From NCBI GenBank assembly GCA_965208245.1, contig OZ242325.1:1395699-1459698 (forward strand): 64,000 nucleotides of DNA. Direction: 5' to 3'. Each line of letters opens with the position of its first letter. Positions within the stretch are counted from its first letter, which is position 1. A program made the position numbers and the translations under genes. Source of the stretch: Candidatus Poribacteria bacterium (lineage in GTDB: Bacteria > Poribacteria > WGA-4E > WGA-3G). Of this stretch, positions 2,967 through 24,324 are shown one piece after another. The notes below the pieces were generated by a model. It did no database searches and was not told the DNA's origin. It saw nothing but the letters and a program-made list of their open reading frames with translations.

Positions 2967-4646
2967 TTATCCTGTTACAGCACCTTCGGACGCAGAGGAA
3001 ACAGATTTCGCGTATTTCGCCATAACCCCACGTGTATAACGCGGTGTGGGAGGAGTCCACGCTTCTAAACGCGCCTGTATTTCAGCATCAGAGAGGGAAA
3101 CATCCAACCTACGTGTTCTGGCATCAATCACAATTTCGTCCCCTTCTTTTAAAATAGCGATGGGACCCCCGATTGCTGCTTCAGGCGCAACGTGACATAT
3201 CATAAATCCGTGTGTTGCTCCAGAGAATCTGCCATCTGTCAGAAGCGCAACATCCTCACTTAAACCGGCACCGACAATTGCTGCTGTCACACCTAACATC
3301 TCCCGCATGCCAGGTCCACCTATAGGTCCTTCATAACGTATCACAACCACATCACCCGGTTTGATTTTACCCCCCTTGATAGCAGTAAATGTGTCCTCTT
3401 CACGTTCAAAGATACGTGCGGGACCGCGATGCAACGTTTTTTCCTGACCCGCTAACTTTATCACACACCCATCAGGTGCAAGGTTACCTTGCAAGATAGC
3501 AAATCCACCGGTCCGTTTCAAAGGAGCATTAACTGATCTAACAACCTGTTGACCCTCCGTCTCAGTTGCAGCAGCCGCTTCCTCACCGATTGTTTTACCC
3601 GTAACAGTCAGCTCATCCGTATGCAGCAAACCTGCTTCTATCAACCGTTTCGTTAGAAATTGGATTCCACCCGCTTCATACAAGTCGGTTGCGACAAACT
3701 GTCCACCCGGTTTAAGGTCTGCCAATATAGGTGTTTTTTGGCTAATGGTGTGGAAATCTTCAAGGGTTAAAGGTATCTGCGCTTCGTGTGCAATAGCGAG
3801 CAGATGCAGAACACCGTTTGTTGAACCGCCTGTTGCAGCAACAGATGTAATCGCATTCTCAAGAGACTTTCGGGTAATGATCTGACTTGGACGACGGTCA
3901 GCAGCCAGCATATCCATCACAAGTTGTCCCGCTTTATATGCTTCGTTATCCTTCTCTTCAACCACAGCTGGCACACTCCCACTACCCAACGGTGCAATAC
4001 CTAACATCTCAACAGCAGTCGCCATCGTATTTGCAGTGAACTGACCCCCACAAGCACCAGGGCCAGGACAGCCTTTACTAATCAAATCGTCCAATTCCTC
4101 AACTGTGATAGTTCCTTCTGCATGCTGTCCGACCGCCTCAAATACGTCTTGTATTGTGACATCGCGCCCCTGAAAATTACCGGGCATAATTGAACCGCCA
4201 TATAACGTGAGAGACGGTATATCTAAACGTGCTAACGCCATCACGGTACCGGGAACTGTCTTGTCACATCCGCAGAGTGCAATCACCGCATCAAACATGT
4301 TGCCGATAGAGACTAACTCTATTGAATCCGCAACGACTTCTCTGCTGATGAGAGAGGTCTTCATCCCCTCTGTACCCATTGTAATACCATCAGAGATACT
4401 CACAGTATTAAATTCAAGCGGCGTTCCACCAGCATCACGGATACCAGCCTTAACCTTAGCAGCAAGATGTCTCAAGTGGAAATTACAAGGTCCTATTTCA
4501 ATCCATGTGTTTGCAACCCCGATAATTGGCTTGTCAAGGTCTTCTAGTGAAAGCCCACCATCACCGAACATCAGCATCGTGCGTGCAGCAGCGCGGTCGG
4601 GACCATCGGTAATCGCATAACTCCGGGGTTTCAGTTTATTAGACAT
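2967..4646 (-). CDS. ilvD: Dihydroxy-acid dehydratase (IlvD/EDD family)
   Basis: 559 aa from the ATG at 4646, with an AGGAGA RBS upstream. IlvD/EDD hallmark segments are present (CDKTVPG, SLISREV..., C-terminal GAVTG). The called ORF extends 21 aa further upstream without an RBS. Confidence 0.88.
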
Positions 4647-18178: not shown

Positions 18179-18442
18179 ACGTGAATAGTTTTTTGTATAC
18201 TTGACCATAGATTGTAATTATACCACATCCTTGGTTTAGATAGAGTCCCTAATTGCTGATTGCAATACATATATTTCATCTTCATACAGGACTGAGGTCC
18301 ATATTAGACTTGTTTTATCTTCTTAAATGGACGCATAAGGTGTAATTCATAACAATTCATCCCCTAGTCCAAACATCCATTTTCTGTTGAATATATGCCC
18401 ACTTTATGCTATTCTATAAACAGATTTTCCATAGGAGTGAGC

Positions 18443-19096
18443 ATGTTAGAAGAAACAACATTTAGAGAACAGGAGCTCCGAGAACTCTCTAAATATATAC
18501 TGACCCATTTTTCAGATAGAAGTGTGAGATGGTTATTAGAGGACAAAGAGAATGTTCGGGGTCTAATAGAAATCCTTGTGAGTGAGCTAGTAGATTATAT
18601 TGATTTCAGTCACCTTGAACGGCAAAATACTATATTCTTATCAAGCAAACTACAGGAACAAGTATCAGATCTGATTTTCAGTGTGCCTTTCAAGAGTGGT
18701 TCTGAAACAGATGAACTTCTGATATATATTTTGATAGAGCATCAGTCGACGGTAGATGTTTCAATGGGTTTCCGTTTGTTATTTTATATGATGCATATCT
18801 GGGATGCACAACGACAGGAGTGGTTAAGAGATAACGTTCCGAAAAGTGAATGGCGTTTGCGTCCGATAGTACCTATCGTGTTTTACAGTGGTGACCGCCG
18901 GTGGCATGTGCCGTTATCTTTGACAGCGATGATGGATATACCGAAAGAGCTGACCCGATTTGCTCCCAATTTTGATGCCCTCATTCTCAATGTAAAAAAA
19001 ATGGAGACATCGGAATTTACAAAAACGGGTCATCCGTTTGGATGGTTGCTCACGGTCTTACAGAATGAAGACGCGGATAAGGTAGCTGAACAGTAG
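18443..19096 (+). pseudogene. Rpn/YhgA-family (PD-(D/E)XK recombination-promoting nuclease / transposase_31) gene, N-terminal part, separated from its C-terminal part by an IS607-family element
   Basis: LIYILIEHQSTVDVSMGFRLLFYMMHIW and IVPIVFYSGDRRWHVP match conserved Rpn/YhgA blocks. The ORF ends at 19096, just before the IS. Confidence 0.6.
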
Positions 19097-19150
19097 TAAA
19101 AAATCTATATTTTTCTTGATATTTCAATATGTTTATGATATACTATTTAT

Positions 19151-19732
19151 ATGACTTATGTATCAACACGTAAAGCAAGCAAGTTGCTGGATTATACACC
19201 TGACCATCTAAGGAGATTAGCAAATGCGGGAAAGATTGACACAATCCGCACGGAGGGCGGACACAGACGTTATGATGTTGATGGATACATCAAAAGCAAA
19301 TCCGATTCAACTCTTGTTACCATTTGCTACTGCAGGGTCTCCAGTGCCAAGCAAAGAGACGATCTTGAACGACAAGTTAACTATATGCGAAGCATCTACC
19401 CCGAAGCAGAAGTTATCCGAGACATCGGAAGCGGTCTCAACTTTAAAAGAAAAGGTCTTAGAACCTTACTGGAACGGCTTATGCAAGGTGATAAGCTCCA
19501 AGTTGTTATTGCCCATCGGGATAGACTCGCCCGGTTCGGTATCGACCTTATACGATATCTCATTGAACAAAACGGTGGCGAACTCGTGGTTTTGGACCAG
19601 ACAGAACACAGTCCGCAAGAAGAGCTCACGGCGGATCTTCTCGCAATCCTGCATGTCTTCAGTTGTAGAATGCATAGACTCCGAAGTTATCGTCAAAAAA
19701 TCAAAGAAGATAAGAGTTTATCCGACAGTTGA
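19151..19732 (+). CDS. tnpA: IS607-type transposase TnpA (MerR-like HTH + serine recombinase catalytic domain)
   Basis: N-terminal HTH (KASKLLDYTPDHLRRLANAGKI). Catalytic serine context VTICYCRVSSAKQRDDLERQ. 193 aa. Confidence 0.8.
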   Translation: MTYVSTRKASKLLDYTPDHLRRLANAGKIDTIRTEGGHRRYDVDGYIKSKSDSTLVTICYCRVSSAKQRDDLERQVNYMRSIYPEAEVIRDIGSGLNFKRKGLRTLLERLMQGDKLQVVIAHRDRLARFGIDLIRYLIEQNGGELVVLDQTEHSPQEELTADLLAILHVFSCRMHRLRSYRQKIKEDKSLSDS

Positions 19733-20810
19733 ACAGCGTGGGATGTTGCGTCAATGGTTCGGGACTGCGCGGTATGTCTATAACAAGACGCTGAATATAC
19801 TCAACACTACGGACACCCAAGCGAACTGGAAAGCAATAAAGACACCTATTTTGAAAGATTTACCTGACTGGGCTAAAGAGACACCTTACCAAGTGAAATC
19901 TGTTGCTATCCGTGATGTCTGCGTTGCTGTTCGCGAAGCAAAGAAGAAGTGTAAAGAAATAGGTGAATATCAATCTGTTTCTTTCAAGTCTAAACGTAAA
20001 CCATCAGATAGTATTTTTATTCCGAAGTCTGCTATATCGGAACGTGGTGTTTACTACACAATGCTTGGTGATCTGAAAATGTCAGAAGCGTTACCTGATA
20101 ACATTGCAGACTCGCGACTGATGAAAGATGGCGATGCATACTATCTGTGCGTATCCTATACTGTGACAACTCAGAAGCGAAAGCCAAACGGAAGCGTTGT
20201 CGCTTTAGACCCTGGCGTGAGAACATTCCTCACCTATTTTCATGAGCATGGGTTCGGATGGCTTGGACACCATGCGATTAATCGTATTCAAAGACTCTGT
20301 GCGAACCTTGACGATCTATTATCCCGTGCTGCGAAAGCAAAACGACCTTCACGCAAGAACCTGAGACGTGCAGCAAACAGGATTAGAGAGCGTATCCAAA
20401 ACCTTGTAGATGAGTTGCACCATAAAGTAGCACGATACCTTGTTGATACCTTTGATATTGTCCTATTACCTACGTTTGAGACTTCAGAAATGACTTGCAA
20501 ATCAGCAAGAAAACTAAACAAGAAGTCTGTCAGACAGATGTTGACACTATCTCACTATAGATTCAAAAAGTTTCTCAAGCATAAAGCAAAAGAAATAGGT
20601 TGCAAAGTTGTTGATGTGTGTGAAGCATACACATCCAAAACTGTGTCTTGGACAGGTGAGATTGTCAATAATTTGGGTGGACGCAAAACAATCAAAGACA
20701 GCACTGGACTCAAGATGGACAGAGACTTGAATGGCGCACGCGGGATATTCCTGCGTGCATTGGTAGATGAACCCTGGTTGCTTGACATAAGCAACTTGCA
20801 AATCGTATAA
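19653..20810 (+). CDS. tnpB: TnpB (OrfB_IS605/RuvC-like) with RuvC D/E/D residues present but no zinc-finger cysteines
   Basis: Start placed at the ATG at 19653 (MSSVVECIDSEVIVKKSKKIRVYPTVEQRGMLRQWFG, the canonical TnpB N-terminus). RuvC-I ALDPGVRTF, RuvC-II LLPTFETSEM, RuvC-III MDRDLNGARGI. The segment between II and III (YTSKTVSWTGEI...KDSTGLK) has V/T/S where the CxxC...CxxC residues normally sit. Confidence 0.75.
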   Translation: MSSVVECIDSEVIVKKSKKIRVYPTVEQRGMLRQWFGTARYVYNKTLNILNTTDTQANWKAIKTPILKDLPDWAKETPYQVKSVAIRDVCVAVREAKKKCKEIGEYQSVSFKSKRKPSDSIFIPKSAISERGVYYTMLGDLKMSEALPDNIADSRLMKDGDAYYLCVSYTVTTQKRKPNGSVVALDPGVRTFLTYFHEHGFGWLGHHAINRIQRLCANLDDLLSRAAKAKRPSRKNLRRAANRIRERIQNLVDELHHKVARYLVDTFDIVLLPTFETSEMTCKSARKLNKKSVRQMLTLSHYRFKKFLKHKAKEIGCKVVDVCEAYTSKTVSWTGEIVNNLGGRKTIKDSTGLKMDRDLNGARGIFLRALVDEPWLLDISNLQIV

Positions 20811-20824
20811 AGAAGTGCAATACT

Positions 20825-21274
20825 GTGTATTGCACGGAAATATACAGGTTAATATCATCGGAAACTCTAAAAGAAGCATTTAGGGAAGCGGTTACGCATC
20901 TAAATAGGTTGGAACCAGAACAAGCAGAATATAGGATACGAGTGTTACACTATTTTGTGATGTTAATCGCAAATCAGCGTCCATCTGATGAACACATTGA
21001 GTTGTTGGATTTAGTAAATCAACTTTCAGGTGAAGAGGAGGTAGAACTAATGGCAAAGTCAATGGTAGATGTAACGTTTGAAAAAGGAGAAACACAAGCG
21101 AAACGAGATAGTGTCATCAAGTTACTGACGCATCAGTTTCCAGATGTTTCCGATACTGTTGTTGAGGCAATCCACGAAATTCAGGAGCGTTCAAGACTTG
21201 ATACGTTGTTTGATCAAATCCTAACTGCGAAATCTCTTGATGATATTGATTTGAATAGTGTTGGTAGTCATTAA
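20825..21274 (+). pseudogene. Rpn/YhgA-family gene, C-terminal part (same frame as the 18443-19096 part)
   Basis: EKGETQAKRDSVIKLLTHQFPDVSDTVVEAIHEIQERSRLDTLFDQILTAKSLDDI matches the conserved Rpn C-terminal tail (EQG..G... LL..RFG.LP......I......L..W....L.A.SL.EV). Both frame coordinates are congruent mod 3 with the N-terminal part. Confidence 0.55.
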
Positions 21275-22750: not shown

Positions 22751-23181
22751 TTCTATCTCCAAGATGGGAATAAAAAAGAGTGGTGACTGTTGTTTCAAAT
22801 CTAAAGAACTTGCATAACATATAGCATAACACAATATGTCTATATGTGCAAGCAATTGGTTGGGTTTAATAGCAAAACGTCTTGACATATTCACCTTTCA
22901 CATGGTATTTTATGGCATTGAAATTTTATATTACCTCAGACTATATTTCATCAGGAGAAGAATATTGAGTATTGTTGTTCACGCCACACACGAAACTATT
23001 CAAAAAACAACGGTTATTGGTTACAAAACACATGGAGATTTAGCAGAAATAGCAATTGCGGAGTTCATTAACCAATACATGTATGATTTTCGTCCAATTC
23101 ACGTTGGTAAAGAACTTTTCCGGGCAAAATCAAAAGAAGAAGACATATTGCATCTATAAAGCAGAAATCAGGCATTTAATT

Positions 23182-24324
23182 ATGGCAGAAATTCTTACTC
23201 TATTTGATGGATCAGACACTTTACTAAATGTTCCATCAACACAAAGCATAAAATACGCTGGATCCAAGCTAAAACTCATCCCGCAGATACTCCAACTCGT
23301 GCAGAAGGTCAATGCTAAGACAATCTTGGATGGATTTTCAGGGACAACGCGTGTCTCACAAGCATTTGCAAAGCTTGGTTATAACGTAGTCTGTAACGAC
23401 ATCTCCTCATGGTCAAAAGTTCTTGGAACTTGCTACCTTCTAAACACTAAACAACGATCTGACTATCAACCGCTTATTGATCATCTAAATGCACTTCTAC
23501 CATTTGATGGCTGGTTCACAGAACACTATGGCGGACACATTAACGACGGTTCATCAATACAGAAGGATGGACTAAAAAAACCGTGGCAGTTACATAATAC
23601 CCGCAAATTAGATGCAATCCGAGAAGAAATAGAAGACCAAAATCTCAGTGTTGTTGAAAAAGCAGTGGCACTTACTAGTCTAATGCTTGCATTGGATCGT
23701 GTCGACAGCACGTTGGGACACTTTTCTTCATACCTGAGGATGTGGTCACCACGATCCTTCAAAGAACTTACGCTTGAAGTGCCAGAAGTGTTTACTTATA
23801 AAGGACACCATAAAGTCCACCAATCCGATATTTTTGAACTCGTGCCAGAAGTATCCGCAGACCTTGCATATTTCGATCCTCCTTACGGTTCAAACAACGA
23901 AAAGATGCCACCTTCCCGTATAAGATATGCTGCATACTACCACCTATGGAAAAGTGTGATCCTTTATGATAAACCGAATCTGTTCGGTAAAGTTAACCGT
24001 CGCACAGATTCATCCGATCAATCATCTGCATCAATATTTGAGGAATTCCGACGAAATAGAGATAAACGTTTCATCGCTGTTGAAGCAATAGAGAAGTTAA
24101 TCAGAATCACACAAGCACGCTGGATTTTGTTGTCATATAGTTCCGGAGGACGTGCAACCGCAGATGAACTGAACGATGTGATGCAAACTAACGGTAAACT
24201 TCTTGCTGCTACTAAAATCGATTACAAACGAAATGTTATGGGGAGTATGAAATGGTCTGATGAATGGACTCCTGCCACTACTAAACCGAATCAGGAATAT
24301 CTTTTTCTTCTTGAAAAAAGGTAG
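23182..24324 (+). CDS. D12-class (Dam-family) N6-adenine DNA methyltransferase with a C-terminal extension
   Basis: Dam motif X/I (IKYAGSKLKLIPQI, LDGFSGTTRV) and catalytic DPPY (YFDPPYGSNN). 380 aa against about 280 for canonical Dam. Start at the ATG at 23182. Confidence 0.8.
   Translation: MAEILTLFDGSDTLLNVPSTQSIKYAGSKLKLIPQILQLVQKVNAKTILDGFSGTTRVSQAFAKLGYNVVCNDISSWSKVLGTCYLLNTKQRSDYQPLIDHLNALLPFDGWFTEHYGGHINDGSSIQKDGLKKPWQLHNTRKLDAIREEIEDQNLSVVEKAVALTSLMLALDRVDSTLGHFSSYLRMWSPRSFKELTLEVPEVFTYKGHHKVHQSDIFELVPEVSADLAYFDPPYGSNNEKMPPSRIRYAAYYHLWKSVILYDKPNLFGKVNRRTDSSDQSSASIFEEFRRNRDKRFIAVEAIEKLIRITQARWILLSYSSGGRATADELNDVMQTNGKLLAATKIDYKRNVMGSMKWSDEWTPATTKPNQEYLFLLEKR

Follow-up and report, generated by a model that had tools for sequence, protein, structure and literature searches.

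Introduction

Can an RNA-guided TnpB nuclease do without its zinc finger? The question is raised by an IS607-family insertion sequence in a 64,000-nucleotide stretch of a Candidatus Poribacteria genome (GenBank assembly GCA_965208245.1, contig OZ242325.1, positions 1,395,699 to 1,459,698 of the forward strand; hereafter the window). Its tnpB gene specifies no cysteine in the segment where TnpB proteins normally carry a C4 zinc finger. A sequence-only reading, made without database searches, had described the product as a 386-aa TnpB lacking the finger but retaining its catalytic residues, and had expected a guide RNA (omegaRNA) at the 3′ end of the gene. We compared the locus with its relatives, with solved structures and with characterised systems. 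Taken as a whole, the evidence makes it likely that the locus is a mobile IS607 element encoding a zinc-less nuclease of the pro-Fanzor type, with an omegaRNA at its 3′ end and a TnpB of 528 aa. The clade to which this protein belongs amounts to a natural experiment, in which selection has maintained a TNB domain devoid of its zinc site, within the lineage that seeded the eukaryotic Fanzors, and it bears both on the role of the zinc finger and on the engineering of compact editors. For the window itself, the practical outcome is an exact annotation of the limits of the element, its target site, a candidate target-adjacent motif (TAM) and a candidate guide (Table 1).

Results and Discussion

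The TnpB and its active site

The short tnpB frame runs from the ATG at 19653 to a TAA at 20808–20810. It is a real frame of 385 codons (386 aa had been claimed), but it probably represents a truncated gene, and it stays open upstream as far as an ATG at 19224. Assignment to the IS607 family held: the product scored 139.9 bits with the guided_TnpB model (cut-off 100), and an IS607 serine transposase gene lies upstream. Pfam identified HTH_OrfB_IS605, OrfB_IS605 and Cas12f1-like_TNB domains, the last at 53 bits despite the absent cysteines. The nearest solved structure is that of the mimivirus protein L79, the Fanzor2 ApmFz2 (PDB 9B0L; sequence E 5e-26), which was also the top match in Foldseek for an AlphaFold model (E 1.6e-22, 495 aligned columns). 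The fold of the model matches TnpB, Cas12f and Fanzor2 structures.

The three strings previously taken as RuvC motifs (ALDPGVRTF, LLPTFETSEM and MDRDLNGARGI) are all present, and the D/E/D triad is complete, but its glutamate is E324 in CEAYTS rather than the one in LLPTFETSEM. Sequence alignment equates D186, E324 and D358 (numbering of the short form) with D324, E467 and D501 of ApmFz2. Among 150 representatives of clusters formed at 50% identity, DPG, P273, E324 and D358 are essentially invariant, while the column of the LLPTFETSEM glutamate varies among E, D, N, S, K, G, Q and R. We therefore rejected LLPTFETSEM as RuvC-II, since its column is variable and E324 is both invariant and aligned with E467 of ApmFz2. 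In the ApmFz2 structure solved by cryo-electron microscopy, the D324/E467/D501 triad coordinates Mg2+, and D324A and E467A each abolish activity (PMC11832414, PMC10530073).

Fanzors and TnpB2 proteins have Pro or Gly at the canonical RuvC-II position and a Glu about 45–50 residues downstream (PMC10530073), and Yoon et al. (2023) define pro-Fanzors by DPG in RuvC-I and a Glu six residues before the zinc finger (PMC10711439). Both features are found here: DPG is present, and E324 is followed by AYTSKT and then by V331 at the position of the first cysteine. The shifted CEAYTS glutamate identifies the protein as an IS607 TnpB of the pro-Fanzor/TnpB2 type, and its sequence places it in the bacterial lineage from which the eukaryotic Fanzors arose. 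Judged by conservation, its triad (D329/E467/D501 in the numbering of the long form described below) is intact and under selection; the ratio of nonsynonymous to synonymous divergence (dN/dS) against relatives is 0.05–0.17 over the TnpB core.

Like the published pro-Fanzor/TnpB2 IS607 TnpBs (PMC10711439; Jiang et al. 2023, PMC10530073), the protein combines DPG, a RuvC-II Pro, the shifted Glu and DRDxNGA, and its gene likewise lies beside that of an IS607 serine TnpA; close relatives are found in Cyanobacteriota such as Moorena, Okeania and Dapis. It differs from them in that all four cysteines of the C4 finger, which they keep, are replaced, and in that its host is a member of the Poribacteria. 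ApmFz2 has the same rearranged triad (D324/E467/D501, against D329/E467/D501 here) but differs in its zinc-bound C4 finger and its nuclear localization signal, and overall identity is about 22%. The TnpBs of ISXfa1 and of IS607 from H. pylori, which share the IS607 architecture and GG crossover (PMC10711439), differ in having the canonical RuvC-II Glu and a C4 finger.

Loss of the zinc finger

The absence of cysteines from the segment between the catalytic Glu and RuvC-III was borne out. YTSKTVSWTGEIVNNLGGRKTIKDSTGLK contains neither Cys nor His, and residues 326–358 (short numbering) hold neither, so that no C4 zinc finger is found. All four cysteine positions of ApmFz2 are replaced, by V331, T334, K348/D349 and T351/G352, in a collinear alignment with no frame break. 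Cysteines aside, the spacing is an exact fit to the pattern published for pro-Fanzors, DPG x(120,160) E x6 C xx C x(12,18) C xx C x(4,8) D. Because the published pro-Fanzor regular expression demands Cys, it cannot find zinc-less proteins; the clade is invisible to such a motif search, and the diversity and host range of pro-Fanzors have therefore been under-counted (for example, sponge-symbiont Poribacteria beside Cyanobacteria).

Alignment of homologues, proposed earlier as a check for a local frameshift, revealed none. The 120 closest homologues (50–90% identity) all read TSKT[VIA]SW[TNS]GE and all lack the zinc finger. Frameshift or sequencing error was thus rejected as the cause of the cysteine loss, both because the alignment with 9B0L is collinear and because the segment is alike in 120 of 120 homologues. 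Among the 150 nearest 50%-identity representatives, about 65 carry CxxC...CxxC and about 75 do not. The first-pair residues of the zinc-less representatives are VT, AT, NT, HT or DT; a few proteins retain a single Cys (CS, CT) and, by sequence, look like intermediates. The former zinc-finger segment has a dN of 0.16 against a dS of 1.4 (dN/dS ~0.11). On this comparative evidence the Cys-free segment is a conserved, selected trait of a large clade, recognizable by its ‘TVSWTGE...’ motif. We speculate that the core of the TNB domain is now formed by the conserved W of this motif (W333) and nearby glycines in place of the zinc knuckle.

We found 515 related loci in GTDB contigs searched at one genome per species, mostly from Candidatus Poribacteria and filamentous or marine Cyanobacteria, with at least five copies within single Poribacteria genomes. 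Almost all members of the clade come either from Poribacteria that are sponge symbionts or from filamentous or marine Cyanobacteria (such as Moorena, Okeania, Dapis and Prochloron), a distribution that suggests horizontal exchange in common habitats.

A general remark by Altae-Tran et al. (2023; PMC10691335) is that the zinc finger has been lost ‘in some large TnpB branches’. In their zinc-less branches, such as RIIIr-4, the C4 finger is lost or mutated branch-wide, the catalytic site is conserved or rearranged, and the proteins are presumed active; RIIIr-4 differs from the present clade in that its RuvC-III is rearranged, whereas here RuvC-II is rearranged and DRDxN is canonical. The searchable literature yielded no biochemical characterisation of those branches, and the literature we searched held no specific description or test of a zinc-finger-less IS607 TnpB or of a zinc-less clade. 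This large zinc-less pro-Fanzor subclade is apparently undescribed.

Limits, target site and mobility of the element

A search for further genomic copies, which had been suggested as the way to the exact ends, gave limits of 19083 and 20861. Five near-identical copies in the Poribacteria assembly CAXXUA have unrelated flanks and diverge sharply beyond the ends, on the left after GG, where the element begins TAGAGTGACAG..., and on the right after ...ATCATCGG. Across 28 Poribacteria copies, column diversity leaps from 0.05 to 0.7 directly after ATCGG.

The element interrupts a gene for a YhgA/Rpn-like protein. Splicing 18395–19082 onto 20862–21274 restores an in-frame open reading frame of 366 aa, with 100% identity to P0271, a public protein that is not interrupted. 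The contig that encodes P0271 (L081; ENA ERZ25069412 ctg804150) comes from a related Poribacteria population and has the vacant site at 3627–3660. It is syntenic with the window, with the same HtrA-like protease and SDR neighbours and flanks that are 92–97% identical. The vacant allele reads GACGCGGATAAGG joined directly to AAACTCTAAAAG, with GATAAGG/AAACTC at the junction. Comparison of the empty and occupied sites reveals a 1779-bp insert, a GG common to both junctions and no duplication beyond this GG core. When we looked for terminal inverted repeats, the two ends matched as inverted repeats at just 8 of 30 positions. The absence of both a duplication and terminal inverted repeats is typical of IS607. 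The limits of the element thus follow from its multi-copy relatives and from the empty-site allele, and that allele also means that the insertion is polymorphic and presumably recent. We presume that the element is intact and recently inserted at AAGG. NCBIfam models applied to the reconstituted host protein gave no bridge across the junction, as they end before residue 229.

TnpA scored 175.8 bits with the NCBIfam model transpos_IS607 (cut-off 110), and Pfam assigns residues 3–42 to a MerR/HTH domain and residues 58–181 to a Resolvase domain. The hallmarks of IS607 are therefore all found: a serine TnpA with an N-terminal HTH, a junction dinucleotide, and mobility in the form of copies at different sites. 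Among 48 distinct insertion sites, the left flank has A (32) or G (16) at −4, A (33) or G (13) at −3 and GG at −2/−1; all right ends in the same comparison finish T-C-G-G. Further multi-copy genomes include OZ241845 and CAXXLX, with at least six copies each. Within the window there is a single copy.

A promoter-like motif stops 6 nt ahead of the tnpA ATG, and its position is kept in related left ends; the tnpA mRNA is thus probably leaderless. This arrangement suggests a single transcript on which tnpA has no leader and tnpB is initiated internally.

Two minor observations concern the ends. Inverted 7-mers (TGATATT/AATATCA and ATATTTC/GAAATAT) are common to the left (19105–19145) and right (20835–20861) subterminal regions and are candidates for TnpA-binding repeats. 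The closest relative (L001) has, at positions ~30–60, another sequence resembling a right end (GAAATATATAGGTTAATTCTATCGG), some 10 nt upstream of its left end, which may represent a solo right end, a footprint or a tandem insertion.

Nuclease or DNA-binding protein

While these data describe a conserved, mobile, zinc-less TnpB, such a protein might be a nuclease-dead or impaired RNA-guided DNA binder, acting as a TldR-like regulator or as a cofactor of transposition. Exapted, inactivated TnpBs are common (PMC10691335), and TldR proteins (bioRxiv 10.1101/2023.11.30.569447) are derived from TnpB, have a degenerate C-terminal region and use omegaRNA-like guides. However, TldRs are no longer mobile, lack catalytic residues and are associated with host genes, whereas in the present clade D/E/D and DPG do not vary and the gene sits in a complete, multi-copy IS607 element with TnpA, both ends, variable flanks and a matching empty site. 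The strong purifying selection, which includes the former zinc-finger segment, likewise argues against a dead enzyme. The sequence-only reading had held that its proposal would fall if all close homologues lacked the cysteines and formed a known inactive clade; the close homologues do all lack them, but their annotation is RNA-guided endonuclease TnpB, they retain the triad, they are mobile, and they form no known inactive clade. Moreover, active Cas12 enzymes such as Cas12a have zinc-free TNB/Nuc domains. On balance we consider the DNA-binder explanation improbable and favor a zinc-free nuclease, whose activity is suggested by the conserved active site.

Three points tell against that preference. 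Most zinc-finger mutations were depleted in ISDra2 TnpB, where they are mostly deleterious (PMC11844463), and zinc-free activity is therefore not guaranteed; the same result fits a nuclease-dead protein. AlphaFold2 (AF2) confidence (pLDDT) over the former zinc-finger segment is moderate, at 63–75. Finally, some copies have decayed, with D to A or N at motif positions or with frameshifts (P0020, L035, L036).

The decaying relatives comprise one with an insertion in tnpB (L035), one with a frameshift in tnpB (L036) and one with stops in both the extension frame and tnpA (L021). P0020 has DRA for DRD at RuvC-III, and several others have N for the non-catalytic first D of MDRD.

A probable N-terminal extension encoded within tnpA

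Where does this TnpB begin? Upstream of ATG 19653 the tnpB frame continues, in the +1 frame relative to tnpA, for 143 codons. In about 70 of 72 loci (TnpA identity 50–93%), no stop interrupts the +1 frame of tnpA between nt ~70 and the start of the TnpB core, while the +2 frame of the same loci holds 8–14. Synonymous-codon shuffles of tnpA predict 3–6 stops in the +1 frame (P ≤ 0.001–0.02 per locus), and the +2 frame behaves as expected. Diversity at fourfold degenerate sites is 0.37 in Poribacteria and 0.64 in Cyanobacteria over tnpA codons 1–23, 0.22 and 0.42 over codons 24–167, and 0.15 and 0.37 in the undisputed tnpA-tnpB overlap; in non-overlapping tnpB it is 0.42 and 0.64. In the +1 frame, the P of PYW, a C and the LL of LLLP are 92–100% conserved at places where both overlapping TnpA residues vary.

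An ATG is found at tnpA nt 67–76 in most loci, and in the Poribacteria copies it lies at nt 73, after AAGGAG or GGAG. By comparison, ATG 19653 is not conserved as a start: among 55 distinct loci, 23 have ATG at this codon and 27 have ACG or ACA (Thr). Public gene calls give half of the homologues a length of about 527 aa. HMMER gave an unbroken alignment of the extension in representatives with identities as low as about 35%. These include representatives that bear a zinc finger, and so the extension is a trait of the pro-Fanzor lineage and not only of the zinc-less clade.

As controls, we used canonical IS607 elements from Helicobacter, Paraclostridium and Vibrio, in which the +1 frame contains 13–25 stops and tnpA overlaps tnpB by only 4–38 nt, and a solo Nostoc IS607 tnpA that has no tnpB, which has 5. 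ISXfa1 and H. pylori IS607 likewise differ from the present element, with overlaps of tens of nt and a stop-rich +1 frame. Together, the stop shuffles, the lower synonymous diversity, the frame-specific residues and these controls point to dual coding. A −1 frameshift giving a TnpA-TnpB fusion at the A-run near 19695–19700 was also entertained, and was rejected because tnpB lies in the +1, not the −1, frame relative to tnpA.

The long form (528 aa) and ApmFz2 (520 aa) align in register, with residue 154 opposite 128 and residue 518 opposite 516. Both have about 130–150 residues ahead of the ‘KIRxYPT’ core start and an SW[YF] motif in the N-terminal region. A profile of the extension aligns the invariant SWF with NSWY 82–85 of ApmFz2, in the ‘RuvC-R’ part of the Fanzor2 N-terminal domain (NTD), a match that is suggestive only. 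Searched against the PDB, this profile found similarity to ApmFz2 solely from SWF onward and nothing for residues 1–118. AF2 modelled the long form with a mean pLDDT of 70.8 (core >85), residues 81–130 forming a helix and two strands at about 65 and residues 1–80 being predicted disordered at <30.

There is another reading, namely that the 143-codon upstream frame is untranslated, that TnpB starts near 19653–19690, and that the constraint on tnpA arises from mRNA structure, codon-pair bias or translational coupling. The very low confidence over residues 1–80, the lack of similarity to any solved domain upstream of SWF, and NCBI annotations that give cyanobacterial homologues as short forms (381–420 aa) would all fit, and we count the low to moderate AF2 confidence for the extension against our own preference. 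Yet such constraints do not readily account for an avoidance of stops that holds down to 50% TnpA identity and exceeds that of synonymous shuffles, nor for residues that are invariant in the +1 frame where TnpA varies. The upstream ATG is conserved, with a Shine-Dalgarno sequence in Poribacteria, whereas ATG 19653 is Thr in half of the loci; canonical IS607 tnpA genes have many +1 stops; and the length and register of the 528-aa form match ApmFz2. An untranslated frame is therefore unlikely in our view. From the sequence comparisons, TnpB probably starts at ATG 19224, about 143 codons earlier than the short model, which would be truncated.

The papers on pro-Fanzor/TnpB2 proteins leave a long tnpA overlap and an N-terminal extension unmentioned, and the literature we searched mentions neither such an overlap nor a prokaryotic extension, only short IS607 overlaps. 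The extension is apparently unreported, and apparently comparable in position to the Fanzor2 NTD. The NTD of ApmFz2 is regarded as a eukaryotic or viral addition; the extension described here lies inside tnpA, in another frame. By analogy with Fanzor2, we speculate that it could stabilise RuvC and the RNA.

If the extension is real, most database models and short-form constructs are truncated, tnpA and tnpB are locked together by about 500 nt of dual coding, and the account of the origin of the Fanzor2 NTD needs revision. A wider proposal is that bacterial pro-Fanzors, whether zinc-fingered or not, are really about 520–530 aa long and carry a tnpA-encoded ancestor of the Fanzor2 NTD (RuvC-R/thumb), and that a large zinc-free subclade among them, to which this element belongs, stays an active nuclease. 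We put this forward tentatively, judging it somewhat more likely to fail than to stand. Were it true, some 140 residues would be encoded in the +1 frame across almost all of tnpA, among the longest conserved out-of-frame overlaps in bacterial insertion sequences, and the Fanzor2 NTD would have been inherited, not invented after the jump to eukaryotic viruses.

A structured RNA at the right end

The sequence-only reading expected an omegaRNA over about 20650–20830, and pointed to a hairpin, GTGCAATAC-TGT-GTATTGCAC, as marking the right boundary of the element. A structured RNA does overlap both the end of the gene and the right end, but conservation and covariation place it at about 20721–20861. 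The hairpin exists as the third stem-loop of this RNA, one base away from the 20814–20834 first given; it is not at the boundary, which lies 26 nt farther on. Taken alone, a perfect 9-bp hairpin is unexceptional, as the window has seven against about 1.6 in shuffles. It was also rejected as a terminator of tnpB, there being no T-run on the + strand.

Column diversity is 0.04–0.08 within the 141-nt block, compared with 0.15–0.4 upstream and 0.7 beyond 20861, and synonymous diversity drops solely in the last ~25 codons of tnpB. From 25 distinct Poribacteria copies, RNAalifold predicted three hairpins together with one small stem and a long-range helix (20724–20729/20845–20850), with 98.3% of cells able to pair. 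This alignment contains 7 compensatory pairs, compared with 3.7 ± 0.9 in shuffles (0 of 500 reached the observed value) and 0–2 in slid controls. A covariance model built from it matched every remaining locus, including all of the cyanobacterial ones, in the same place and mostly over its full length, though conserved coding sequence supplies part of the score in distant loci, which lessens the weight of these matches. In 51 distinct sequences, double changes occur in 31 of 38 pairs and 90.7% of cells pair, compared with 35–48% with slid partners; because the model itself shaped this alignment, and because part of the region is coding, the figures are generous, although the contrast with the controls is still large. 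In the same set, stem-loop 1 has compensatory changes in 7 of 10 pairs (95.7% of cells paired) and stem-loop 2 in 8 of 8 (95.8%). Stem-loop 3 is the least conserved, being variable, absent or replaced in many cyanobacterial copies; among Poribacteria it has AU/GC covariation at one pair. The sequence of the block in the window folds with a z-score of −4.9. An Rfam search of 20300–21000 (E ≤ 10) returned chance snoRNA-like matches only, with no RAGATH-18 or other omegaRNA family.

Four Poribacteria copies (L016, L019, L022 and L023) have an extra 24-nt GC-rich hairpin (AGGCTTCAGGC...GCCTGC) directly 3′ of stem-loop 3 and ahead of the conserved last 26 nt, which resembles the tolerated expansions typical of guide-RNA scaffolds. 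A distant Poribacteria subgroup (L058, L062, L070, L072 and L077; ~54% identity) has a GC-rich 3′ non-coding tail of more than 100 nt with a different structure. Its weak covariance-model scores indicate that the guide-RNA scaffold has diverged there.

The conserved right end must also contain TnpA-binding sites, which counts against reading the block as RNA alone. At the extreme, the 141 nt might be nothing other than a DNA end carrying TnpA-binding subterminal repeats, perhaps with a transcription attenuator, and no guide-RNA scaffold. TnpA-binding repeats do occur in IS607 ends (PMC6188088), the inverted 7-mers described above are common to both ends, the last 26 nt are nearly invariant and mostly unpaired in the predicted structure, and a minus-strand hairpin followed by a T-run resembles a terminator. 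DNA-binding sites, however, do not predict compensatory changes such as those of stem-loops 1 and 2 (7/10 and 8/8 pairs, with 96% pairing), nor pairing that collapses in slid controls. The block is also placed exactly as are the omegaRNAs of TnpB, IS607 and Fanzor2 (PMC10711439, PMC11832414), and the two roles can coexist. We regard a DNA end alone as very unlikely. By analogy with those systems, the conserved 3′ block is a candidate omegaRNA scaffold, with a guide starting at 20862 (AAACTCTAAAAGAAGC...); in the vacant allele, the sequence from 20862 onward is that which adjoins AAGG.

The closest parallel is ISXfa1, whose right-end RNA (reRNA) consists of a scaffold of about 144 nt reaching to the right end and a guide of about 17 nt (PMC10711439). 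There the TAM is GGG and the right end CGG, so that vacant sites are cut and occupied ones spared, a pattern paralleled by RRGG and TCGG here. The TAM of ApmFz2 is also a G-rich 3-nt motif, GGG, compared with the candidate RRGG. Against this parallel, the RRGG logo could mirror the target choice of TnpA rather than a TAM of TnpB.

Proposed cycle of the element

From characterised relatives (ISXfa1, ApmFz2 and TvTnpB), from which the RNA-guided steps are inferred, a cycle can be proposed. TnpA, a serine recombinase, moves the double-stranded element by a GG-dinucleotide crossover into an RRGG site without duplication. TnpB would bind the ~141-nt omegaRNA derived from the 3′ end of its own transcript, with its three stem-loops and long-range helix. 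This RNA would read past the right end into the flank from 20862, which would supply the guide. The complex would then cut element-free alleles in which RRGG adjoins the guide match, and repair from the occupied copy would restore the element. The occupied site would be spared from self-cleavage, its right end being TCGG.

Feature coordinates

Table 1. Features of the IS607 element and its target site (positions in the window; residue numbers as short or long form of TnpB)
Feature	Position	Strand	Remarks
Host gene, 5′ part	18395-19082	+	YhgA/Rpn-like PD-(D/E)XK ‘Transposase_31’ protein; PF04754, E 2e-30
Target-side motif AAGG	19079-19082	+	RRGG consensus; candidate TAM
Left GG	19081-19082	+	IS607 crossover dinucleotide
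IS607-family element	19083-20861	+	1779 bp; no terminal inverted repeats or target-site duplication
Sigma-70-like promoter	19116-19144	+	TTGATA-17-TATACT (TG-extended); consensus match only
tnpA	19151-19732	+	IS607 serine recombinase, 193 aa; MerR-like HTH N-terminal, then resolvase catalytic domain
Shine-Dalgarno-like AAGGAG	19210-19215	+	8 nt upstream of ATG 19224
tnpB, probable long form	19224-20810	+	528 aa; the short frame 19653-20810 is the C-terminal 385 aa
Probable N-terminal extension	19224-19652	+	143 aa, +1 frame inside tnpA; motifs PYW...LLLP...TV..SWF at residues 81-130
RuvC-I DPG	20208-20216	+	D186 short/D329 long; ALDPG; aligns with ApmFz2 D324
Canonical RuvC-II position	20469-20471	+	Pro (P273) replaces Glu; near-invariant P
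Relocated catalytic Glu	20622-20624	+	E324 short/E467 long, in VCEAYTS; invariant; aligns with ApmFz2 E467
Former zinc-finger (TNB) segment	20628-20717	+	YTSKTVSWTGEIVNNLGGRKTIKDSTGLKM; no Cys or His
Candidate omegaRNA scaffold	20721-20861	+	~141 nt; last 30 tnpB codons and 51-nt tail, to right end
RuvC-III Asp	20724-20726	+	D358 short/D501 long, in DRDLNGARGI; invariant in full-length representatives; aligns with ApmFz2 D501
Stem-loop 1	20736-20758	+	10 bp, GCACGCGGGA/UCCUGCGUGC; within coding sequence
Stem-loop 2	20776-20796	+	8 bp, GGUUGCUU/AAGCAACU; within coding sequence
Stem-loop 3	20815-20835	+	9 bp, loop UGU; directly after stop codon; hairpin of the sequence-only reading
Right GG	20860-20861	+	Crossover dinucleotide; right end finishes ...ATCATCGG; junction TCGG, not RRGG
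Predicted guide-encoding flank	20862-20881	+	AAACTCTAAAAGAAGCATTT; matches empty-site target adjoining AAGG
Host gene, 3′ part	20862-21274	+	YhgA/Rpn-like

About 2 kb downstream, an open reading frame at 23056–24324 of the window, unrelated to the element, contains DPPYG, a motif typical of N6-adenine/N4-cytosine DNA methyltransferases.

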